DNA from: Alloascoidea hylecoeti
Lineage: Eukaryota
Assembly: GCA_001600815.1 (NCBI GenBank)
Contig: BCKZ01000021.1
Location: 372,001 to 436,000, forward strand
Direction of reading: 5' to 3'
Length of the DNA stretch: 64,000 bases
Shown here: piece after piece, positions 4,645 to 31,313 of the stretch
Layout of the letters: each line of letters begins with the position of its first letter
Position numbering within the stretch: position 1 is the first letter of the stretch
Made by a program: the position numbers and the translations under genes
The notes under the pieces: model-generated
Told to the model about the DNA's origin: nothing
What the model saw: the letters and a program-made list of their open reading frames with translations, nothing else
Database searches by the model: none

Positions 4645-6459
4645 ATGTTAAGATTGTCTTCATCCCATCTTATAATAAGAAGCAATTGCAAAAGATTATC
4701 AACTTCGTCACTTCAATTAATTGCAAAAATGTCAACAAATATAGCAAGGCTTTCCGTTCAAGGTCCAATTAAAACAAATTTAGTTGGAATGAAACTTTTG
4801 AACTCGGGTTTATTAAACAAAGGTTCGGCTTTTACTCCTGAAGAAAGAAAAGAATTCGGATTAAACGGTTTATTACCACCTATTTATAACACTCTTGATG
4901 AACAAATTAAACGTGCCTATGCCCAATTTAATGCTTTAGGAACAGATCTTGAAAAAAATCAATTCTGTACTTCTTTAAGAATCCAAAATAAGGTTCTGTT
5001 CTTTGAATTGGTTAGGAGACATATCAAGGAGATCTTCCATATCATTTATACTCCAACTGTTGGTGATGCAATTATTCAGTATTCAGAGCTTTTCAGAAAA
5101 CCAGAAGGCTGTTTCTTAAGCATTACCGCTCCATCTGAAGAAGAAATCGAAGAAAGATTAATACCTTTTGGTACTGACAAAGATATCGACTATATTGTTG
5201 TCTCTGATGGTGAGGGTGTCCTGGGAATTGGTGATCAAGGTGTTGGCGGTATCGGAATTGTGATTGGTAAATTGGCTCTTATGACTGCTTGTGGTGGTAT
5301 CCACCCTGGTCGTGGTATTCCAATCACTTTGGACGTTGGTACAAATAATCAAGATTTAATAAATGATCCTTTATACATGGGAAATCGATTCCCAAGAGTT
5401 GAAGGTGATGAGTACAATGCATTCATCAAGAATTTTATTGCTGTTGTTAAAAGAAGATTTCCAAGCTGTGTTTTACATTTTGAAGATTTTGGTAAAAATA
5501 ATGCGAGATATAATCTAAACACCTATAGAAATGAATTGTCTTGTTTCAATGATGACATTCAAGGTACTGGTGCTGTTGTTATGTCTTCAATTACTGCTGC
5601 TTTAAAAGTTACAAAGACTGAGTTACGTGACTTAAAAGTCGTTGTTTTCGGTGCAGGATCATCTGGTATTGGTATCTCACAACAGATCGTTAATAATATG
5701 ATTGCTGAAGGCTTAACCCCGGAAGAAGCTCATAATCAAATCTATGTTTTAAATTCAAAGGGTCTTTTGGTAGAATCAACTAAATCAACTTTACTAGATG
5801 ATCAAAAAGTATTTTGCAAGCGTGATGAAGATTGGGAAGATGTTAATACAAAGAGTTTATTAGAAATTGTTAGAGCTGTTAAACCACATGTTTTGATTGG
5901 TTGTTCAACTAGACCAAAATCTTTCACAAAAGAAATTGTACAAGAAATGCATAAGCATGTACCAAGACCAATCATTTTTCCTTTATCAAATCCCACTAGA
6001 CTTCACGAAGCAACTCCAGAAGAACTAATTGAATGGACAAATGGTGATGTTTTAGTTGCAACTGGTTCTCCATTCGCACCTGTAAATGGTAGAGAGATTT
6101 CAGAGAATAACAACTGTTTCAGTTTCCCAGGAATCGGTCTTGGTTCTGTCTTATGTCGTTCATCAAGAATTTCTGATAAAATGATTGCCGCCTCTGTCAC
6201 TGAATTAGCTTCATTATCGCCATATTTTGATAATGAAAATGCTGGTTTATTACCTGATGTTTCTCAAATTAGATTTGTTGCTAGTCGTGTTGCTACTGCT
6301 GTTATTCTAGCTGCTGTTGAGGAAGGTGTTGCAACTGTACCAAAAGAGGAAATTCCTCAAGATTTTGATGAATGTTTGAAATGGGTCGAGAGTCAAATGT
6401 GGAATTCAGAATATAGACCATTAGTTAAGACTGATGAAGAGCATACTTATCAACTATAA
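4645..6459 (+). CDS. MAE1: Malic enzyme, paralog A, with mitochondrial presequence (604 aa)
   Basis: Motifs NKGSAF, IIYTPTVG, VSDGEGVLGIGDQG, HFEDF, FNDDIQGTG, GAGSSG, IFPLSNPT, ATGSPF, ENNNCFSFPGIGLG. N-terminus MLRLSSSHLIIRSNCKRLSTSS is Arg/Ser-rich and acid-free. Confidence 0.95.
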   Translation: MLRLSSSHLIIRSNCKRLSTSSLQLIAKMSTNIARLSVQGPIKTNLVGMKLLNSGLLNKGSAFTPEERKEFGLNGLLPPIYNTLDEQIKRAYAQFNALGTDLEKNQFCTSLRIQNKVLFFELVRRHIKEIFHIIYTPTVGDAIIQYSELFRKPEGCFLSITAPSEEEIEERLIPFGTDKDIDYIVVSDGEGVLGIGDQGVGGIGIVIGKLALMTACGGIHPGRGIPITLDVGTNNQDLINDPLYMGNRFPRVEGDEYNAFIKNFIAVVKRRFPSCVLHFEDFGKNNARYNLNTYRNELSCFNDDIQGTGAVVMSSITAALKVTKTELRDLKVVVFGAGSSGIGISQQIVNNMIAEGLTPEEAHNQIYVLNSKGLLVESTKSTLLDDQKVFCKRDEDWEDVNTKSLLEIVRAVKPHVLIGCSTRPKSFTKEIVQEMHKHVPRPIIFPLSNPTRLHEATPEELIEWTNGDVLVATGSPFAPVNGREISENNNCFSFPGIGLGSVLCRSSRISDKMIAASVTELASLSPYFDNENAGLLPDVSQIRFVASRVATAVILAAVEEGVATVPKEEIPQDFDECLKWVESQMWNSEYRPLVKTDEEHTYQL

Positions 6460-9759: not shown

Positions 9760-12412
9760 TTCTCCGGTTTGTCCCGAGGCGTTATATTATTATTATTTTT
9801 TCTATAAAAATGGTGATAACCATAAATTATAATAATATCATTTTAATTTGCATTATATACCGCGGAACGAAACACTGGAACATATTTGAGTGTTATGAAT
9901 CTTATGATGGTATTTTTGAGCTTTCAAAATCAAAAAGTTTGTTGTATATATTTTTTTATTTCAACTTTAACTTCTACAACACATTAAGAAAAAATTTATA
10001 TATTATAAGTTATATACAGAAAGGCTGTCAGTAAAATTAAACGTGGGGAACAATCACTAAACTAATATTGTTGCAACTTGTCTCATATGCAGGTGGATTC
10101 GTAAATATAATTATAATATCAATTGATATCTTGAATGGAAGGTTGATTGGAAGGTGTCGAAAATTTCATGTGATGTCAACATTTGCATACTTAATACTTA
10201 TCGGTATCGAAAAATATAGACTACCATCACAATAGATCCATAATAAAAGACTCCAAATTCGTGATTAACCTTTAAATCTCAATAGAACTAAGTACTGTCT
10301 ATGTATATATATATGTATAAGGTAGATCTAATTCTTATCCATGTATGATAGTATAAAACATTTGATACTTTTTCAAAGATCTTCATAATAGTCATATTTA
10401 TATATGACAGATAGCTGTAAATAGCGTTTTTGTGTTATTGAGAACTTATTGGTGATATGGCAATTCTGTCATAATCATAGTATAATGTTGTTGAAATGAC
10501 CTGCCTATTCCGAGTTTTAGGTAATGTGCCATTTTGTTCGTCGGATATTTAGTACATATACTTGCATAAAGAAAATTAAATATATCGATATATCATATAG
10601 AGGTATTTAATCTGCAATTGTACTTATAGTTTTCCCGATTTCGGGTTATGTTTATTACCAAAAGCTTCTGGTGTGGTTAACAAACTATAGCGACCGAATA
10701 GTTTATCATTGCTTTTATAATTGCAAGAAATACTGTACTAATTATTATAATCAATATTTCACAATTTGGCACCCAAATCAAACAATCACTTCTTTTTTGT
10801 GGGGATATGTTCACGATATATATCGATTGCAAATTTGCAATACAGTTTTTAACTCTATACAATTACGTGTATTTTAGCATGAATAAGAGGTACACTAACA
10901 CTACTGTAATAGTGTTAGTAGTTACATTTCAACACCGGTATAGGTAAGCATATACCTATAGTTGCTGTGACCATGAGGATAATAATTATTGACGACAAAA
11001 ACTTGCAAAGGGTTATCTTCTAAGTTCTAATCCTCCTCCTAGCCTCCTTATCAAAGTACAAGGGGCGGCAGGGCTAACTAGACTATCCTATAAGGTAGAT
11101 TGTCCGTGTTCGGAACATAATTAGTATGTGTAAATAAGTTATATAGGCTAATAAATTAATAGTTATTAGTTAATTCATAGTTAATTGCAATTGCAGATAT
11201 AAATGGACGAATTGGTGTGCCTATAGGAAACACTTACTTTCAACAACCCTGTCTTGTCCTTTTCTATACTAAATTACGTATCGATACTGTTCATCTATAT
11301 AATAAAATTATATATCGATATATGCAATATGTACATTTTTACATTTTTGTTTTATCAAATGTAATGCCTCAAGTATTATCCCTAAAGGTAACACCATGTA
11401 GGTTATGATACCAGGTATTAGTCTTGTGAGTCAAATCTATGAGAAACACTTTATAAAAAATAGTTTTCTATTTCATTAATACTGTGGTTTTGGCTAAACT
11501 TTTATTACATATGGTATTATCTAATACGGAAAGAATATCGAAATTCTTCTATAAATTAGATAAATTATATCTTTGTTTAATGTCAATATCAATATCACGT
11601 ACACCTAATTAGCCATACAAATTAACTTATATATGGTATAAGCTATATAACCAAAAAAGATCGTGTTTGTAAGTTGAGAGCAAATATTCAATCTGCAATT
11701 CCGAATTTCCATATAAATTTCTCTCTAAAAACTCTGAAACCTTATGGTGAGTTCTAATATTACTCTTAATTATCGGATATATATATATAAATATCATGAT
11801 CATTATGAATGAGGTGTATATTCTTGCAACAGATGGCTTCTTTTGTTGCATCCTTGGTTCCGAAGCTGTATTATATGAATCCGAGTTGTTCCGCGAAACC
11901 CTGCCTTCTGGCAGCTGCCTGCATTACCAGTAAAAACAACATTAAAATATATTGTAGATCCAGACTCTCTTCTTTTTTTTTTTTTAATTAAATCCCTCAA
12001 AGAGTCTATGATTTGGAGTAATAATCACAGTTACATCATTGGTTATAAAATTAAAAATAAATTACTTCTCATTATAGAAGTATTTGTCCAATGCATATGC
12101 ATCTAATTGCAGACTCACGCATTCAGGTGCATGCTAATATTGAAATCTTTTAAATTTGCAATTGAAATTGACTTGTGTATCTCATCTTCCCAAATGATAA
12201 TGAGACTATAAATATACCTGATTCCCCCTTGAGTTTTCAGTTTCGATCCATTACTTATAACTATCATCTAAAAAGAGTAGTTTTCCTTGAGCTTAATCTC
12301 AGAACACTAGTGAATGGTTATATTTATACAAACTTCATTACAGCCTTATCCTTATCCTTTAACAACTAGTCATAAATCGTTTGCTACATTTTACATTAAA
12401 CCTACCTTTCCC

Positions 12413-14389
12413 ATGATGATTTCACCCAACTCTGGCTCTAGAAGATCATCAGATTCAGATTCAATTACGGATATCACCAGACTCCCCGAATCGAATCTTA
12501 ATACATTAAGAAGACCATCCCAAAATCATGTTAGTTCTGGTAATCTTAGATCAAATCCAATTGGTAAAAAGTTTTTTATTGGAGGCCATGACTTTGAACA
12601 CCCAAGTTCTAATGATTTTGTACCATTCTTGAAAACAACAAGACTTTCTGTTGAAGGACCAGTTGAATGCGAATTGGAGGGATTTGCTCTTTTAAATTCT
12701 GCTTTATTTAATAAAGGTAGTGCATTTACCTTAGATGAAAGAGAGGAATTCAATTTAACATGTTTATTACCACCAGCTGTTGACACTTTAGATGAGCAAT
12801 TGAATAGAGCTTATAAACAGTTTAAAGCTTTACCCACTGATTTAATGAAAAATGAATTTTGTACTTCTTTAAGATTACAAAATAAAGTTTTGTTCTATGA
12901 ATTAGTCAAAAGACACATTAAAGAAGTATTTCATATCATTTATACTCCAACTGTTGGCGATGCAATTATAAATTATTCCAATCTTTTTAGAAAGCCTGAA
13001 GGTTGCATGCTGGATATAACCAGAAATAATCAGATGCAAATTGAAAAATCTTTAGAACCATTTGGTACAGATGAAGATATTGATTATATTGTTGTTTCTG
13101 ATGGTGAGGGTGTTTTAGGAATTGGTGATCAAGGTGTTGGCGGTATTGGAATTGTAATTGGTAAACTGGCACTCATGACTGCTTGTGCTGGTATACACCC
13201 TGGTCGTGTTATTCCTGTTACTTTGGATGTTGGTACAAATAATCAAAAACTATTGGATGATCCGTTATACCTTGGTAATAGATTTCCAAGAGTTAGAGGT
13301 GAAAAATACGATAGATTTGTCTACAATTTCATTCAAGTTATCAAAAAAAGATTTCCTAGCGCGGTTTTACATTTTGAAGATTTTGGTGTTACTACTGCCA
13401 GGAAAGTCTTGAATTCATATAGAGGTGAACTTCCTTGTTTTAACGATGATATTCAAGGAACTGGTGCTGTTGTGATGTCTTCGATAACTGCCGGTCTCAA
13501 AATCACCAGTCTACCTTTGAATGATATAAAAGTAGTCATATTTGGTGCTGGTAGTGCTGGTCTTGGTATCGCTTTCCAAATTGTCGATAATTTAGTTTCT
13601 AATGGTCTTTCATTAAGAGAGGCGAGAGATAAGATTAATTTAGTTGATAGACAAGGTCTACTTTTGAAATCTCAAAAGGGGTTGATGTCACAGGAACAGG
13701 CCCTATTTGCATGTGAGGATTCAGAATGGGAGGGTATTGATACAACAAAACTAGTTGAGATTATCAAAAAGGTTCAACCACAGGTTTTAGTTGGTTGCTC
13801 GACAAGACCAAAGGCATTTACCGAAGAGGTTGTAAAGGAAATGCATAAATATGTTTCAAGACCAATGATTTTCCCTTTATCAAATCCAACAAGATTACAC
13901 GAAGCGGTTCCCTCAGATTTATTGGCGTGGACAAATGGACAGGCGTTAGTTGCAACCGGCTCACCATTCGCTCCAGTTAATGGAAAAATCATTTCAGAAA
14001 ATAATAACTGTTTTACTTTTCCAGGTATTGGCCTTGGTGCTGTATTATCTAGAGCCAAAATTATTTCTAATGGTATGATTGCCGCTGCTGTTACTGAACT
14101 TGCAAGCATGTCACCATCACTTGAAGACGAAAATGGGGGTCTTCTACCACAAGTAACAAATATTAGAGAAGTAAGTGCGAGAGTCGCAACAGCGGTTGTT
14201 TTAGAAACGGTCAAAGAACAATCAGCAAGAGTTATTCATGAAACAAGACCACAATCTTCAAGAAGAGTTGAGATTCCAGATAATTTTGACGACTGTTTAA
14301 AATGGGTTAAAACACAAATGTGGGACTCGAATTATAGACCAATGGTTAAGCCACCATTAGGAAGAAGTCCTTCGACACATCAATTTTAG
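12413..14389 (+). CDS. MAE1: Malic enzyme, paralog B, with Ser/Arg-rich N-terminal extension (probably cytosolic)
   Basis: Same malic enzyme motifs (NKGSAF, GIGDQG, HFEDF, FNDDIQGTG, GAGSAG, LSNPT). Start is uncertain: in-frame ATG at 12314, or MMISP at 12413 (preferred). Confidence 0.93.
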   Translation: MMISPNSGSRRSSDSDSITDITRLPESNLNTLRRPSQNHVSSGNLRSNPIGKKFFIGGHDFEHPSSNDFVPFLKTTRLSVEGPVECELEGFALLNSALFNKGSAFTLDEREEFNLTCLLPPAVDTLDEQLNRAYKQFKALPTDLMKNEFCTSLRLQNKVLFYELVKRHIKEVFHIIYTPTVGDAIINYSNLFRKPEGCMLDITRNNQMQIEKSLEPFGTDEDIDYIVVSDGEGVLGIGDQGVGGIGIVIGKLALMTACAGIHPGRVIPVTLDVGTNNQKLLDDPLYLGNRFPRVRGEKYDRFVYNFIQVIKKRFPSAVLHFEDFGVTTARKVLNSYRGELPCFNDDIQGTGAVVMSSITAGLKITSLPLNDIKVVIFGAGSAGLGIAFQIVDNLVSNGLSLREARDKINLVDRQGLLLKSQKGLMSQEQALFACEDSEWEGIDTTKLVEIIKKVQPQVLVGCSTRPKAFTEEVVKEMHKYVSRPMIFPLSNPTRLHEAVPSDLLAWTNGQALVATGSPFAPVNGKIISENNNCFTFPGIGLGAVLSRAKIISNGMIAAAVTELASMSPSLEDENGGLLPQVTNIREVSARVATAVVLETVKEQSARVIHETRPQSSRRVEIPDNFDDCLKWVKTQMWDSNYRPMVKPPLGRSPSTHQF

Positions 14390-22999: not shown

Positions 23000-23758
23000 A
23001 TGAAAGACAAAAATAAACCTATAAAAGGGCATTCAAAGGGTCATGGTGGTCGTAAACATAACATTTCTCATAAGCCTGTACATGTTAATTTTCCAACTCC
23101 ATTAGCCATGTGGGATTTCGAACAATGTGATCCAAAAAGATGTTCAGGGAAGAAACTTGAAAGACTAGGCTTAATTAGGTCCTTAAAAATTGGTCAAAAA
23201 TTTCAAGGTATTGTTGTTTCATCAAATGGTAAACAAGTCGTATCTCCTGCTGATTTAGAAATTGTTGAATCATTTGGTGTTTCTGTTATTGAATGTAGTT
23301 GGGCAAAAGTTGATGAAATACCGTGGAATAAAATTGGCGGAAAACATGAAAGATTATTACCTTATTTGGTTGCCGCAAATCCAGTTAATTATGGAAAACC
23401 TTGGAGATTAAACTGTGTTGAAGCAATTGCAGCATGTTTAGTTATTGTTGGAAAATACGAATGGGCAGAACAATTGCTTGAAGGTTTTGAATACGGCAAA
23501 ACTTTTTTGCACATCAACGGGGATTTATGGGGGATTTATCAGGATTGTCGAGATAGTGAAGAAATATTATTGAAACAGCAGGAATATTTGGAGATGATTG
23601 AAAAAGAGGCACGTGAGAGACGCGAAGAGACAGATGATGTATGGATGTTAGGGAACACAAATAGAGTCGAACTTGCTTCTTCTTCTGAAGATGATGAAGA
23701 ATCAGATATCGAGAGTGAATTAGAATACGATACTCTTGGAAATAAAATAGAAAATTAA
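23000..23758 (+). CDS. TSR3: 18S rRNA aminocarboxypropyltransferase
   Basis: LAMWDFEQCDPKRCSGKKL, ECSWA, RLLPYLVAANPVNYGKPWRLNCVEA, acidic tail. Confidence 0.97.
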   Translation: MKDKNKPIKGHSKGHGGRKHNISHKPVHVNFPTPLAMWDFEQCDPKRCSGKKLERLGLIRSLKIGQKFQGIVVSSNGKQVVSPADLEIVESFGVSVIECSWAKVDEIPWNKIGGKHERLLPYLVAANPVNYGKPWRLNCVEAIAACLVIVGKYEWAEQLLEGFEYGKTFLHINGDLWGIYQDCRDSEEILLKQQEYLEMIEKEARERREETDDVWMLGNTNRVELASSSEDDEESDIESELEYDTLGNKIEN

Positions 23759-23791: not shown

Positions 23792-26700
23792 ATGACATTA
23801 CAAAAAGAATCTGGCTCAGACACAACGTTGTCGTTTCAAGAATTAATCACAACACTATTGCAACCGCTCACAACATCGATATCAGTTAGTCATGGTAGAA
23901 CTAAAAGTGAAATTAAATCGACCATTGTATTAAATTTTATCAAAGAATGGAAATCCAAAACCGAGATAAACATTTATCCGGCTTTTAGACTCTTGCTGCC
24001 CGATAAAGATACAAGACAATATAAAATAAAGGAAACAAACCTCGCTAAATTAATATTAAAAATTTGGGGTATACCACAAGACTCAATTGATGCTAAAAAA
24101 TTAATGGATAAGAAAAATGGTCATTTTATGGAGAGATGTGAACCGATAATTATGAAACGAAATTTCAATGAAAAATATAGTAATTTATCAATTAAGAATA
24201 TAAATGACGATTTAGATGAATTATCTTTATGCTTAGAACAATCTGATCAATTAACTATATTTAAAAATTGGTCAAAAAATTTAAACGGAAAAGAGTTATA
24301 TTGGTTATTTAAAATTATTTTAAAACAATTGAATTTAGGTATTAGTGAAAAAACAGTTCTTTCAATTTATCATCCTGATGCTTTACAATTATTTTCAATA
24401 TCACAAGATTTAAATCGTGTTTGCGATGAGCTTCAGGATGTAAATGTAAGGTTAAATGAAAAAGAACAAAAAATTCAAATAAATAGCTGTTTTCAACCAA
24501 TGACTGCATCAAGTTTTGGGAAATATGGGTCGTTTGATGCTGTTGTGGAACAGATGAAAAAAAATTGGGATCCGGTTGTAGCAGCTCAAAAGGAACAACA
24601 ATCTCAATCAACTTCAAACACTTCAACTAATGAATATGGTACTTTCTATATTGAAGAAAAAATGGATGGTGAACGAATTCAGCTTCACATGTTTAACTCT
24701 GGTAAATCATTTAAATTTTTTTCACGAAATAATCATGATTATACATCATCATATGGTTCAACAATTGATGCTCCATCACCTGCATTAACCCGACACTTGA
24801 AAAATGCTTTTCATCCGAAAGTTAATAATTGTATTCTTGATGGAGAAATGGTTGCTTATGATCCAAATACCAATAAGATTTTTCCATTTGGTACTTTAAA
24901 AACAATTGCTTCTGATCTAAATGAAAAAAATATATGGCCATTATTTTTAATATTTGATGTTGTGTTATTAAATGATCAATCTTTAATTAACTATCCTTTA
25001 AAAGAAAGAAAAAAAACTCTAGAGTTTATAATTAATCCTAATAAATCACATTTTGAAATATTACCATATGTTACCGCTTCATCTGCTTTAGAAATTGAAA
25101 AAAATTTAAGTACTGTCATTTTTGAACAAAGTGAAGGATTGGTGATAAAATATCCTAATTCGGATTATAAGATCAATACCAGAGGTGATTATTGGATTAA
25201 GGTAAAACCTGAATTTGTTGATGGATTAAGTGAAAATTTGGATTTAATCATTTTAGGCGGCTATTATGGTAAAGGACAACGAAATGGTAAACAATTGGTT
25301 AGTTTTTTATGTGGTATTCGAGATTATAAAGATAATAATAATAATAATAATAATAATAATCAAAACGCAAGTTCAGCTTCAGCTTCAGTTTCAGTTGGTG
25401 ATAAAAGAACCAGTAGTGGTGAAGTTAAGATTAAAAAAGAAAATTCAGATTTAATACCACCAAAAATTGAATGTGAAAGTGTTGATAATTCAAACTTAAT
25501 CCCTGATAATTTCATATTTAAAAGCTTTGCTAAAATAGGTGGTGGATTCACAAAATCTGATTATTTATTTATAAATGATAAACTTTCATCAAAATGGATA
25601 AATTTTAAATCAAAGAAAGATCCTGAACTTTTAAAATATATTGATGTTGGTGATAAATTATCAAAAGCTGATGAACCAGAAGTTTGGATAAAACCTGTTG
25701 ATTCGTTAGTTATTGAAGTTAAAGCAAGTCAAATTGTGCCCACAACATCATATTCAACAAAATGGACAATAAGATTTCCAAGATTTAAAGGTTTCAGAAA
25801 TGATAAGGATTGGAGTAATTGTTTAAATTCAAATGAACTTGATGATTTACAAAAAAACTTTTATAAAATGGAAGTGAAAAATGAAGAAGATAATAAATTT
25901 TTAAAAAATTCTATTGTTGATGAAGATGGATCCAAAATGAAGAAGAAAAGAAGAACAATTAGATCTAGACCAACATTAAAAGAAATGTTTGTATTAGAAA
26001 CCTCGAAAATAAATATTTATGATGTTGATAAATGGGGACCAAAAACAAATATTCTTCAAAGGAATTATTTTCATGTTATGACTGGAATGAAAACAGAAAA
26101 CAGCGACCATCTTAAGCTTTCAAAAGTTGATTTAGAAAGTATAATTAAACACCACGGTGGGAATATTCGTCAATCGTTACAACTAACAGAAGAAGAGAAA
26201 CATTCGAAATCGTTTATATTTATAAAGATTGCAGATAAGGAAACAATTCGAACACAAGCATTAATTAAATCATATAATATATGTGATGATAATGATAATA
26301 ATTTTTTTATTATAAGACCTCAGTGGTTATTAGACTCAATTAGTCTACTTCGAATGGTGCCATTTGAACCAAAGCACTTATTTTTTGCAGATAAATTAAC
26401 AACAGAGTCTGTGAAACTTAATGTTGATAGATACAATGACAGCTGGTGTGTTAAAATTAATATGACTGAATTAGAATCATTGATCGAAAATATTGATTTA
26501 GATATTGAAAGAAAAGAAGGAAGAGGGGAATCAGAACTTGATTTGACAAAATATTTATCAGATGCTGAGATTTATGGTGAATTAGGTGGTACTTTTGTTT
26601 ATTTCTTCACATCGTCAGTAAATAAATTATCACTAGCAAATAAATTTCGAATTCAAAAGGCAAAGAACTATATAAAATTCTTCAATGGTAATGTCAGTTC

Positions 26701-26890
26701 TGATNTTAATGAATCTGTTGGCATTGTCATAATTGTTGATGATGAAATTGAAGAATTTGAAGAGATTTGGAGCCTAAATTCAAAAAGAGAAAAAAAAGCA
26801 TACTTTTTAAAAATCGAATGGATTGAGGAATGTTGGAAGGAAAATACAAGAGTTCCTGAAGAAAACTTTCAAATCCAAATTTCTAAATAA
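23792..26890 (+). CDS. DNL4: DNA ligase IV (NHEJ)
   Basis: Adenylation motif EEKMDGERIQLH, ILDGEMV, EGLVIK, WIKVKPE, TIRFPRF and C-terminal tandem BRCT-like repeats (EWIEECW). First ATG is at 23792; the track start at 23774 is TTG. Contains (AAT)x9 at 25334-25360. Confidence 0.95.
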   Translation: MTLQKESGSDTTLSFQELITTLLQPLTTSISVSHGRTKSEIKSTIVLNFIKEWKSKTEINIYPAFRLLLPDKDTRQYKIKETNLAKLILKIWGIPQDSIDAKKLMDKKNGHFMERCEPIIMKRNFNEKYSNLSIKNINDDLDELSLCLEQSDQLTIFKNWSKNLNGKELYWLFKIILKQLNLGISEKTVLSIYHPDALQLFSISQDLNRVCDELQDVNVRLNEKEQKIQINSCFQPMTASSFGKYGSFDAVVEQMKKNWDPVVAAQKEQQSQSTSNTSTNEYGTFYIEEKMDGERIQLHMFNSGKSFKFFSRNNHDYTSSYGSTIDAPSPALTRHLKNAFHPKVNNCILDGEMVAYDPNTNKIFPFGTLKTIASDLNEKNIWPLFLIFDVVLLNDQSLINYPLKERKKTLEFIINPNKSHFEILPYVTASSALEIEKNLSTVIFEQSEGLVIKYPNSDYKINTRGDYWIKVKPEFVDGLSENLDLIILGGYYGKGQRNGKQLVSFLCGIRDYKDNNNNNNNNNQNASSASASVSVGDKRTSSGEVKIKKENSDLIPPKIECESVDNSNLIPDNFIFKSFAKIGGGFTKSDYLFINDKLSSKWINFKSKKDPELLKYIDVGDKLSKADEPEVWIKPVDSLVIEVKASQIVPTTSYSTKWTIRFPRFKGFRNDKDWSNCLNSNELDDLQKNFYKMEVKNEEDNKFLKNSIVDEDGSKMKKKRRTIRSRPTLKEMFVLETSKINIYDVDKWGPKTNILQRNYFHVMTGMKTENSDHLKLSKVDLESIIKHHGGNIRQSLQLTEEEKHSKSFIFIKIADKETIRTQALIKSYNICDDNDNNFFIIRPQWLLDSISLLRMVPFEPKHLFFADKLTTESVKLNVDRYNDSWCVKINMTELESLIENIDLDIERKEGRGESELDLTKYLSDAEIYGELGGTFVYFFTSSVNKLSLANKFRIQKAKNYIKFFNGNVSSDXNESVGIVIIVDDEIEEFEEIWSLNSKREKKAYFLKIEWIEECWKENTRVPEENFQIQISK

Positions 26891-27599: not shown

Positions 27600-28583
27600 T
27601 TATTTATTACCTTTGAAGAAACTAGTGGCCAAATTTTGAACCATTGGATTATTAACTAAATCAGATAGTCCATCTCCACCAGAAGATTGATGTTGTTGTT
27701 GCTGTTGCTGATGAGATTGAGAACTACTTGAGTTCTCAGTGAAACTTGAAATAATTGATCCTATGCCTGAGTCTTGAGATTTTATATTTGAGGTTTTTTG
27801 GGATGATCCAGTTAATCCTGATATAATCCCTCCAAATCCAGAAGATGAGTTTGTAGTAGTTGAAGTTTGTTGAGATGAGCCAGTTAGTCCAGATATAATT
27901 CCTCCAAATCCAGAGGAAGATGATTCTTGTTTTTTAGCACCACCACCAGAAAGCATTCCAACTAAACTACCAAGACCACTTTGTTCCTGTTTTCCCCCTC
28001 CAATTAACGAGACTAACCCTTTTGCACCGAAATTTTTTAATACGTATTCTAATACTTTTGGATTTGAAAGTAATTTTTGTGCCATTGATGACGTTGCGGG
28101 ATTCGATAACAAAGTAGCGAAACTAAGCCCCCTTTCTTGATCACCAGAAGCTAGGTCTCTGGAACCAGTACCTTCACCAGCTTTGTTAGAAGTGCTAAAA
28201 GAATTAATAGCAGAGCTCAATGCAGATAAATCAAACGAATCATTTTCATTTTGTTGTTGAGAAATACCTCTTGTTGTTTTTGATTGACTATAGGCATCTC
28301 CACTTTTAGGATTATAACCTCTAATTTCTTCTTTTCTCTCATAAGTATTATACTGTTGATTTTGATTTTGATTATTTAAAGTAGATAGTAAAGACTCTCC
28401 ATTAAGCAATTCATTTGATTTTCTTTCTGAATTTCTGCTATTTACATTAAATAATGATTCTAATCCATTAATGACATTTTCAAAATCTCTTGAATTTGAA
28501 TTAATGTTACCTTTCTCTACTTCTGAGTTTAAGAAGGAAATGAATAATAATGAAAGATCTTGGGAGGTAACTGTGCTTGGCAT
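27600..28583 (-). CDS. Sgt2-like co-chaperone derivative: N-terminal dimerisation domain plus STI1-like helices and Gly/Ser repeats, no TPR
   Basis: N-terminus SQDLSLLFISFLNSEVEKGNI..FENVINGLESLF resembles the Sgt2/SGTA dimerisation domain. LLSNPATSSMAQKLLSNP and LSDLVNNPMVQNLATSFF resemble the Sgt2 C-terminal NP motifs. Lies next to DNL4/TSR3. Confidence 0.7.
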   Translation of the reverse strand: MPSTVTSQDLSLLFISFLNSEVEKGNINSNSRDFENVINGLESLFNVNSRNSERKSNELLNGESLLSTLNNQNQNQQYNTYERKEEIRGYNPKSGDAYSQSKTTRGISQQQNENDSFDLSALSSAINSFSTSNKAGEGTGSRDLASGDQERGLSFATLLSNPATSSMAQKLLSNPKVLEYVLKNFGAKGLVSLIGGGKQEQSGLGSLVGMLSGGGAKKQESSSSGFGGIISGLTGSSQQTSTTTNSSSGFGGIISGLTGSSQKTSNIKSQDSGIGSIISSFTENSSSSQSHQQQQQQHQSSGGDGLSDLVNNPMVQNLATSFFKGNK

Positions 28584-30373
28584 TTTAAGATGTAAATTCC
28601 AGAGAAGTTTATAAATATAATTGATGTTAAGATTGTCGTCGAAGAAGTTCAGGAAGTTTTTTAATCTCCGTTTTATAAATTACAAACCCAACGAAGATCC
28701 CAGTCGATTGTTATGATAAACTGTAGGGTAACACAAATGGACTAGATAAAACAATAATGCACAGCACGAAGACAAGCCAATTGGATACAAACAAATGAGA
28801 TTTACAAGATGGGAATAGTCCCATATCAGTTCAGTTATTTTGTTCAGATCATACCATTTATCCTTTAATGTTCATGGCAGAAAATAATTAACTATAGTGG
28901 CCATGCCCCGACTGCATGACTTTGGTAGATCCGGATCCACCATATTTAAGAATGACGGTAAACAGTGGACAAAGAGCATACAATGGAGTGGACAGTAAAT
29001 AGAGGTGCGATAATCAGTCTGTTTTAGTTTAATGTTATAATATTAATATTTATATGTAGCTGTTTAAATGCTTTTCTTTAAAGTGCAGACTTCACTTAAA
29101 TTTAAGCTTCTTCTCAGACGTCAAAATACATGTCCAGCACCGTATAAATCTATTGTCATCTAGCTAGATTAGCCATGAATTAATTTTGAAATATTCCAAA
29201 GGATTTATAAATCACAGGATCAGTTCATATCACACACATACATGCCTATATTTTGAGGGTCTGCAAAATATATCGAACATTCATATGCAGGGACCAAACA
29301 CTGATGCTTCGGGCATCTACGTATATCTTGGTCTGTGCTATATATTACACACACGATTAAAATTGAAGATCATTGATTAATTAGATATACGTTTGACAAC
29401 ACAATGTAAACTCTGGATAATCCTCAATAAATCTTTATAAGATCTTATATGTACCGTACAATATTTTCTATATCCATAGCTATACAGTATGTATAGATCT
29501 TGTAGATGGCCGCCTAAATTTAAACAAGACAGTACCCATTTTAATATATATGAGAACAATGTTAACTTGACATCTCAAACCTGTTAGATATTTTAACTTT
29601 CCTACTGACTATAATTACCTATAATATAGCTATGCAAGGATATGACAGTTTTATGATCATTTGGAATAAACTGTGCCAGTCATGAATATTGTGCAATTGT
29701 AGGGGAGTTTATCTTCGACCTTCTTGTTTAAATTTCTCAAAGAGATAACAGTGAACCAGCTTAGCGATTTCATCTTTTCAAGAACGTGGGAACTCCAAAG
29801 CACCAATAAGATGAAATTCATCATAATGAAACACTATACGGTTCTCAACTTCTCACTAAAGAATTGCTGGCGGAATTTGATGACAGGGCCATACGTGTGA
29901 GAAATAACCTCTACAAACTTGGACATGGGATATTTAAGCCCTCTAATAAATTTATAGCCTATATACGCGTATACCTTTTGGGACATTTGTTTTTGGGCGA
30001 GTCATTGTTTCTTTTTCGGTGGCGTTACGCAATGGGACAAAAAGGGTGATAGTCTAGCAATTAAAACAGCAATTAAAACTTATAAAACTTTATATGGTAG
30101 CTATAGGTAATAGGTATAAATTGATCATGAGTTGGAGATGGAAATATGATCAAAATAGATACTAATATTATAGGCACCGGCCTGAGGTGCGCATAATGGT
30201 ATAAGATGAGATTTGGCCTTCGGAAATAAAACTACTACTAATCTACATGGCAATTCCGATTTTCGTAGTTTGTGACGAAAGAAGAGATTTGCTGCAGACC
30301 TAGCTTGCATTTCCCAATGATATCTCCCAATGGTATTCTTCATGTTTTACTTATATGGCAGGCGAAAAATAGA

Positions 30374-30548: not shown

Positions 30549-31313
30549 ATGGGTTCAAAGTTCATCAAATCAGGAAAAGTCGGTATGTAGATATGTTGAG
30601 TCAACTTCAATTCAATCGGATTTTTTTGGCATCTTGAAGAACTGGATTCATGTCGTGCGACTTTTCAGAATGTATTTATTTAATCTCATTCAGAATTTTA
30701 TAACAACAATCAAGAGAAATTCATGAACTATTTGCTATGTGGATACAAATTTATTAACTGATGTCACAAAATCAACAATCCTCAAAGTTTGGATCCCACA
30801 AAAATTATAAAAGAATTGAAATTAGATGTTATTGTGACAGACTTTTCTTCAGATATGCCAAAAACATCTCCTTTGATTTACAAATTATTATTATAGTGTA
30901 TATATTCTAACCGTTTTCTTTTTATGAATCTAGCCATTATTGTTCGTGGTAGATATGCCGGTAAAAAGGTTGTCATTGTCAAACCACATGATGAAGGTAC
31001 CAAATCTCACCCATTCCCACATGCCCTAGTTGCTGGTATTGAACGTTACCCATCGAAGGTCACAAAGAATCTTGGCCCAAAGAAGATTGCCAAAAGAACC
31101 AAGATTAAGCCATTTGTGAAATTGGTTAACTACAATCATATTCTGCCAACACGTTACACTTTTGATATTGAATCTTTGAAATCCACTGTTACAACTGAAA
31201 CATTCAAAGAGCCATCACAGAGGGAAGATGCTAAGAAGGAAATCAAGAAAGTATTTGAAGAAAGACATCAAGCTGGTAAGAACAAGTGGTTTTTCACCAA
31301 ACTTAACTTTTAA
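30549..31313 (+). CDS. RPL27: 60S ribosomal protein L27 (eL27), 137 aa; exons 30549-30582 and 30934-31313
   Basis: [26 protein letters not shown]...[12 protein letters not shown]. 351-nt intron GTATGT..TTCTAAC..TAG. Confidence 0.97.

Follow-up and report, generated by a model that had tools for sequence, protein, structure and literature searches.

An Sgt2 paralog without a TPR domain beside TSR3-DNL4 in the yeast Alloascoidea hylecoeti

What could be the role of a protein that retains both ends of Sgt2, and not its TPR domain? The question is raised by a gene at positions 27600..28583 (minus strand) of the window, i.e., the whole 64,000-nucleotide stretch of the Alloascoidea hylecoeti genome that was analysed. 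A sequence-only reading of the window had taken the gene for an Sgt2 derivative that had lost its TPR next to TSR3-DNL4, and had proposed that it was either the positional SGT2 ortholog, uncoupled from Hsp70/90, or a neofunctionalised paralog, such as a holdase or a dominant-negative dimer partner. The gene is a single-exon ORF of 327 amino acids plus stop, intact in the contigs of three sequencing runs, and, read from 28583 to 27600, it has no CTG codon, so that its translation is unaffected by the code variants of yeasts. The link to TSR3 (23000..23758, plus strand; a family match) and DNL4 (23792..26890, plus strand; ORF list and family match), the latter encoding DNA ligase IV with BRCT domains, held up, with the correction that the gene is convergent with DNL4 and lies downstream of TSR3-DNL4. 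A single N near 26705, inside the DNL4 coding sequence, gives an X in the translation.

Descent of the ORF from Sgt2 was confirmed by a match to the Pfam family SGTA_dimer (PF16546) and by collinear matches to a family profile made from the best 120 of 1,113 homologues of the canonical Sgt2 of the same genome. The profile aligned with residues 4-105, 141-209 and 290-326 of the paralog in order, skipping the TPR columns. The loss of the TPR was borne out: a profile of that domain alone scored 189 bits on the canonical copy and -0.3 on the paralog, and detected no TPR-like coding in the six frames of the window, while a Pfam search of the paralog up to an E of 1 returned neither a TPR nor an STI1 family. 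Helix 2 and the first NP motif are 114 residues apart, compared to a minimum of 189 and a median of 231 in the homologues (115 of the 120 measured), a shortfall of about the length of one TPR. In its place, as had been described, is a low-complexity linker of 78 residues (73-150; 28134..28367, minus strand), delimited by profile, spacing and pattern analyses, of which 29 are Ser, Asn or Gln and whose family-profile score is no better than that of shuffled sequences. One amphipathic stretch within the linker (117-130) does not beat shuffles, and an assignment of residues 110-135 to the pre-helix motif of the family was dropped, as 169 of 500 shuffles did as well. Global alignment pushed the linker onto the TPR columns, and for that reason it was not used for the full-length fold. 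Without a TPR, the paralog has no carboxylate clamp (K106, N110, N141, R171 and R175) for the tails of Hsp70 and Hsp90 (PMC5641545). The closing and loading of Sgt2 are driven by Hsp70 (PMC10761869), a step that should thus be closed to the paralog.

The N-terminal dimerisation domain (residues 7-70; 28374..28565, minus strand) matched PF16546 with an E of 4.9e-7 and 29.9 bits, above the cut-off of 26.8, and residues 1-72 scored 23.3 bits against the Sgt2 family profile, a value reached by none of 500 shuffles, so the resemblance noticed by eye is significant. Its identity to the canonical N-domain is 26% (18/69). An alignment-based model of the domain (pLDDT 91) had Sgt2/SGTA N-domains as its six best fold matches in the PDB, none below an E of 0.001 and all partly circular, since the model was built on the family alignment; the only PDB sequence that the paralog matched up to an E of 10 was S. 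cerevisiae Sgt2 (E 0.027, in three collinear pieces). Judged by the residues themselves, the dimer core is kept, with F17, L18, I27, F45, V47 and L65 at buried positions. The helix-2 strip (residues 29-45; 28449..28499, minus strand), compared with 117 homologues (3 of the 120, with at least 400 residues, being excluded), likewise has hydrophobic residues at its buried positions, and its Get5-contact positions are changed. The UBL site of Sgt2 uses D28, D31, D38 and E42 (PMC4240585), the Cys and Val of helix 2 are its main apolar contacts, and one dimer takes one UBL (PMC4683186). At the positions of D28, V35, C39 and E42, the paralog has residues found in 0 of the 117 homologues, which upheld the earlier impression of an altered Cys/acidic strip, and the surface through which Sgt2 feeds ER targeting was probably lost. 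Helix 2 retains three acids, D31 is either kept or reversed according to the placement of a one-residue deletion (two registers), and the Asn that replaces D38 is tolerated in the family, occurring in 28% of homologues; on these grounds, some Get5 binding may persist.

Of the C-domain, which in Sgt2/SGTA is Met-rich, with six amphipathic helices and NP motifs, two pieces match the family, and the C-terminal likeness to Sgt2 seen at the outset stood. Residues 151-195 (27999..28133, minus strand), the first half of the STI1-type domain with two NP motifs, scored 23.6 bits against the family profile, and residues 301-327 (27603..27683, minus strand), comprising the last NP motif and the terminal helix, scored 18.4 bits; each beat all of 500 shuffles, as did the two together at 43.8 bits, and residues 301-327 were also the best BLASTP piece of the paralog against the canonical copy. 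A Pfam STI1 match was sought in this domain and not found. The NP motifs number three (N161, N174 and N312) rather than the two that had been claimed, and the third NP of the Sgt2 family is lost. There are 3 Met in the domain vs at least 6 in the 120 homologues, two apolar positions of helix 1 are polar, and the first-to-last NP span is 151 compared to at most 89 in 118 homologues. By our own mapping onto the helices of PMC8010706, the client-binding region has recognisable counterparts of helices 0-2 and 4-5; there, the C-domain alone captured a client, helices 1-3 being the most important for binding.

Between these pieces is a Gly/Ser/Gln-rich insertion of 105 residues (196-300; 27684..27998, minus strand), delimited by pattern analysis, whose family-profile score is no better than that of shuffles. 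It includes four amphipathic eight-residue units, starting at residues 204, 226, 250 and 274 (region 204-281), which the sequence-only reading had overlooked. More than two such units occurred in none of 10,000 shuffles, for a pattern that was defined after the units had been seen, and the pattern occurs once in the canonical copy. Part of the region arose by an in-frame tandem duplication of 72 nt (27777..27920, minus strand; residues 222-245 and 246-269; 64 nt, 84% alike at a spacing of 72). A single-sequence model of the full-length protein was of low confidence (pLDDT 44.5).

Four matches to PF16546 in the genome were over the cut-off (of five listed). The whole-genome search for a TPR-containing Sgt2 that had been proposed found a canonical copy on contig C8 (C8:695150-696331), which is complete in its three domains and has both clamp residues and Get5 strip intact; it is flanked by lipase-like and ATP synthase alpha-like genes. 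Two further copies, at C23:255709-257109 and C2:1694346-1696175, have an N-domain and a TPR (79 and 93 bits with the TPR profile, respectively) and no C-domain. With an intact clamp, Get5 strip and C-domain on C8, the entry of the cell into the GET pathway is not uncoupled from Hsp70. Get3, Get4 and Get5 were each found once, with a weak second match listed for Get3, and SGT2 alone among these GET genes appears, from these searches, to have multiplied. Get5 was located by its Get5_N domain, and its UBL exon is intact and reads as a normal UBL. A whole-genome search with the Get5_C profile gave no match, so that the C-terminal dimerisation motif of Get5 may be diverged. GET5 (C26:147246-147524) has an apparent intron.

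The gene beside TSR3 nevertheless has a claim to be the old one. By accession or locus number, SGT2 and TSR3 are adjacent in Cyberlindnera jadinii, two apart in Kuraishia capsulata, three in Candida subhashii, ten in Yamadazyma tenuis, about 22 genes in Lodderomyces beijingensis and more than 170 in Candida viswanathii, that is, no more than three genes apart in three of the six named yeasts. The TSR3 of S. cerevisiae is YOR006C and its SGT2 YOR007C. The proposed positional link was thereby upheld, and since the canonical copy branches as sister to the compared yeasts in our trees, the link to TSR3 was probably present in their common ancestor. Given this neighbourhood of SGT2 in other yeasts, it is the positional ortholog that has diverged; on this comparison, the copy at the ancestral TSR3-DNL4 site is probably the one that changed. 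The choice that had been offered between positional ortholog and paralog therefore had some truth on both sides, the locus being the positional ortholog and, with a canonical copy on C8, a paralog as well.

Trees of the family place the paralog poorly, due to its long branch, odd composition and alignment in which 49% of columns are filled. The end branch is 1.47, vs 0.31 for the canonical copy, and sisterhood of the two was neither found nor rejected (p-AU 0.162). The first tree held 38 of the 120 homologues, and the second was limited to 22 of these and excluded the C23 and C2 copies. Orthologue searches retrieved only the paralog itself from 8,000 scored candidates of lengths 179-573, and itself plus one low-complexity match from 1.84 billion representatives; that second match was Gly-rich, with no Sgt2 features by eye, and was rejected. 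Metagenome scans with the paralog and with TSR3 as queries yielded no such locus, and neither of two Atlas searches returned a usable match, a result that speaks for neither novelty nor absence. A search for RNA runs containing the gene listed none, and the one RNA run aligned does not cover it, neither result bearing on its expression.

Our preferred reading, to which we would give a probability of roughly 0.45 on the sequence evidence, is that the paralog is a dimeric binder of hydrophobic helices outside the Hsp70-Sgt2-Get3 relay, possibly in mixed dimers with canonical Sgt2. SGT2 would have duplicated in this lineage, with the canonical job kept by the copy at another site, on C8; the copy at the old TSR3-DNL4 site, thus freed, would have shed its TPR and diverged at about five times the rate. 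Its N-domain would still pair as a helical dimer, either with a second copy of itself or with canonical Sgt2, and would bind Get5 weakly or not at all, and the remodelled C-domain, with amphipathic units in flexible spacers, may bind short hydrophobic helices, whether these belong to clients or to its own chain. Outside the relay, such a protein would serve as a holdase or sink in dimeric form, and any mixed dimers would halve the dose of TPR and leave canonical Sgt2 with a weaker Get5 site. The C-domain itself speaks against this reading, as it looks worn in its sequence, from its three Met to its lost NP and the polar changes of helix 1. The holdase and dominant-negative roles offered by the sequence-only reading stay conditional. 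A predicted heterodimer between the N-domains of the paralog and canonical Sgt2 scored 0.57, the best of three controls reaching 0.02, which is weak support by the calibration of the tool: of the 78 solved complexes, 5 passed with a score of up to 0.60, the range that also held all 4 mismatches that passed (of 180), and the overall count was 51 of the 78 solved complexes and 2 of 108 mismatched pairs. The runs agreed in at least 89% of contacts, with a partner pLDDT of at least 75 and without alignments, but the pass may reflect the likeness of the model to the solved Sgt2-N homodimer.

It is the loss of the Get5 strip, not that of the TPR, that suggests the paralog left the relay. Engineered Sgt2 from which the TPR had been deleted restored the targeting of GFP-Sed5, and no GET bodies were formed (PMC11959614); TPR loss alone would therefore not remove Sgt2 from GET. 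The same work found the N and C domains necessary, and these are the domains kept in the paralog. It follows that the paralog could be a TPR-less Sgt2 that is still GET-competent, handing tail-anchored proteins to Get4/5-Get3, alone or mixed, and escaping the GET bodies of starvation, for which the three acids left on helix 2 also speak. We consider it unlikely, given that the two chief apolar contacts of the UBL, C39 and V35 (PMC4683186), as well as D28 and E42, have given way to residues seen in none of the 117 homologues, and that the UBL of the only Get5 looks normal, so that no co-evolved partner is apparent.

The amphipathic units point to another role for the protein, that of a self-associating scaffold, in which the groove of the C-domain would bind the repeats of its own chain and dimerisation would double the valency, resulting in condensates as in yeast Dsk2, where phase separation is driven by an STI1 domain to which three transient amphipathic helices bind (PMC13083955). 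The units lie in Gly/Ser/Gln spacers and are selected at the residue level. The case is one of analogy, however, and the units are only eight residues long and Gly-rich, three of the four lack helix in the model of low confidence, and all fall within the C-domain, in the stretch that separates helices 3 and 4, where they may break the groove; we regard a scaffold of this kind as improbable. The likeness to Dsk2/ubiquilin is in the combination of an STI1-type domain with several short amphipathic segments in a disordered chain, and goes no further, as the paralog has no UBL, UBA or sequence match to ubiquilin families.

The gene might also be a duplicate under relaxed selection, with little function left, its frame open through weak constraint, and heading for loss. 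Such decay would fit the end branch of 1.47 compared to 0.31 in the canonical copy, the damage at every known partner surface, the lack of an orthologue among the 8,000 candidates or 1.84 billion representatives and the fact that both coding SNPs of the paralog in run X4 change a residue. The density of SNPs in the gene (2/984) did not differ from that in intergenic DNA (10/2,340; p=0.26), which counts against our preferred reading, though strain SNPs were few. Decay is hard to reconcile with neutral-drift simulations (300 runs in each of six settings), in which not one frame was still open after divergence to 70%, 50% or 30% identity, with changes that spare the buried positions of the N-domain, or with the tandem duplication, whose copies have been under purifying selection since they arose. 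Over 24 codons, these differ with a pS of 0.50 and a pN of 0.12 (pN/pS 0.23, p=0.001), and the 17-codon core has seven synonymous and no replacement changes; with flanks added, the ratio is 0.55 (p=0.04), a weaker result, and the test rests on one 24-codon pair. The codon index of the paralog, 0.656, is within the range of 17 window genes (0.59-0.83), off-frame and intergenic sequence having values of 0.43-0.53. The signs of a pseudogene that were sought are thus absent, with a frame undisrupted in three runs and a divergence that is not neutral by simulation or repeat pN/pS. We therefore think a decaying duplicate rather unlikely and a selected protein-coding paralog of some function highly likely. 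As a normal Sgt2 copy exists elsewhere in the genome, the gene is probably a duplicate turned to a new use, and not the sign of a pathway that has broken down.

The C23 and C2 copies raise the prospect of an Sgt2 split in two, in which the N+C paralog pairs through its N-domain with N+TPR proteins, rebuilding a co-chaperone with other partners. The losses are complementary, and V35 and C39 are replaced in all three non-canonical paralogs. Such a split is very unlikely, however, since in both TPRs K106 is changed and clamp position 171, which is Lys or Arg in 120/120 homologues, is Glu, so that binding of Hsp70 tails is unlikely, the region of the third N-domain helix is remodelled in both, and the grouping of the three in the tree is weak (82.9/70) and on long branches. 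By their sequences, the C23 and C2 proteins are candidate TPR adaptors with new partners. Their genes are part of a duplicated three-gene block (C23:249186-257109 and C2:1694346-1703944; identities of 68%, 42% and 37%), the two large neighbours in which we take to be PKC1-like and SRO7-like, and across the four Sgt2-type neighbourhoods, C23 and C2 alone have paralogs in common, TSR3 having one match in the genome. ATP1, PKC1 and SRO77 are near each other in S. cerevisiae, so the three non-syntenic copies may share one landing region. Also on C2 (1687666-1690573) are two identical 307-aa ORFs, head to head and about 1 kb apart.

That the TPR was merely removed from the record by an assembly gap or hidden exon, as a draft assembly with an N in DNL4 and an X4 break in the linker might suggest, is largely refuted by single 5,701-nt contigs in each of X1 and X2 (two samples, either of which may be the source) that span the gene with no differences, by the X4 break being a two-allele site, by the six-frame search of the window and by the strong divergence of the remainder of the protein. 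In X4, a metagenome run of another strain, three contig pieces cover the gene, differing from it by 2 substitutions and no indels, with one break within the linker. No segment is missing, the absence of a TPR-encoding piece that the sequence-only reading had raised as a concern was not found to be due to the assembly, and the ORF is real. A short X4 joint at 27948/27687 was dismissed as a repeat match, as it sits on a poly-Gln stretch matched by other contigs too. In the spacer upstream of the paralog (29262-30315), X4 differs from the window by deletions of 9 nt and 80 nt and ten substitutions. Farther on is RPL27 (30549-31313), the true start of which is apparently in a short upstream exon preceding an intron; a second copy exists elsewhere, as shown by twofold depth and differing letters in each of the three DNA runs. 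The window also has two malic enzyme genes (4645-6459 and 12314-14389), 67% identical and 6 kb apart, and a 534-aa ORF (335-1939) with no Pfam match up to an E of 1.

Among known systems, the closest is Sgt2/SGTA itself (PDB 9llv, 4asv, 2lxb and 3zdm; PF16546), with which the paralog shares the N-domain and recognisable parts of the NP-punctuated C-domain in the same order, as well as, with the S. cerevisiae protein, the terminal helix motif and the TSR3 neighbourhood. It differs in the missing TPR, the replaced Get5-contact residues, the Met-poor C-domain, the 105-residue repeat insertion and in not being the sole copy in its genome. Since two of the defining features of the family, the TPR clamp and the Get5 strip, are missing, it is better called an Sgt2-derived protein than a canonical member. 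The statement that no example had been described stands for natural proteins, as no natural Sgt2/SGTA without a TPR was found in the open-access literature (subscription journals being mostly outside that scope), but an engineered one has been described (PMC11959614). The two have the same N + C architecture, and the engineered protein has the wild-type Get5 site and C-domain, whereas the paralog is a product of nature with changes in each. PEX38 of Euglenozoa (bioRxiv 10.1101/2025.11.03.686288) is likewise a natural SGT derivative that took another job after domain loss, but its loss was the opposite one, the N-terminal dimerisation domain having gone and the TPR having been kept, and it occurs where most of GET is absent, while GET is intact in this yeast. 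The UCS myosin chaperones (PMC4045384) are also a co-chaperone family with dimerising TPR-less members; they are an unrelated family in which the TPR-less form is widespread, compared to one gene in one species here.

Beyond our preferred reading of a helix binder outside the relay, the four N-domains, three of which would be without a Get5 site, might mix as a combinatorial Sgt2 family whose mixed dimers divert clients from GET, although we hold this to be doubtful on the strength of the sequences. In such a family, the TPR-less subunit would supply an enlarged, multivalent helix-binding arm and the C23 and C2 subunits TPRs with a reversed clamp for partners other than Hsp70, and hydrophobic clients would leave the GET route for a chaperone-independent store or condensate. 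If true, it would be the first natural regulator of Sgt2 made of its own parts.

The weight of the finding is limited by its restriction to one species and by a GET pathway that is itself intact. At this locus, the positional ortholog is not the functional one, a trap for annotation based on synteny. The need for the TPR in tail-anchor targeting is disputed, its role having been called ambiguous (PMC11959614) vs the Hsp70-driven loading of PMC10761869, and a natural N+C protein bears on that question. Together, the N+C protein, a canonical copy and two copies without a C-domain in one genome are a ready set for dissecting Sgt2 function module by module, and the same set is suited to asking whether mixed subunits tune Sgt2 dimers.
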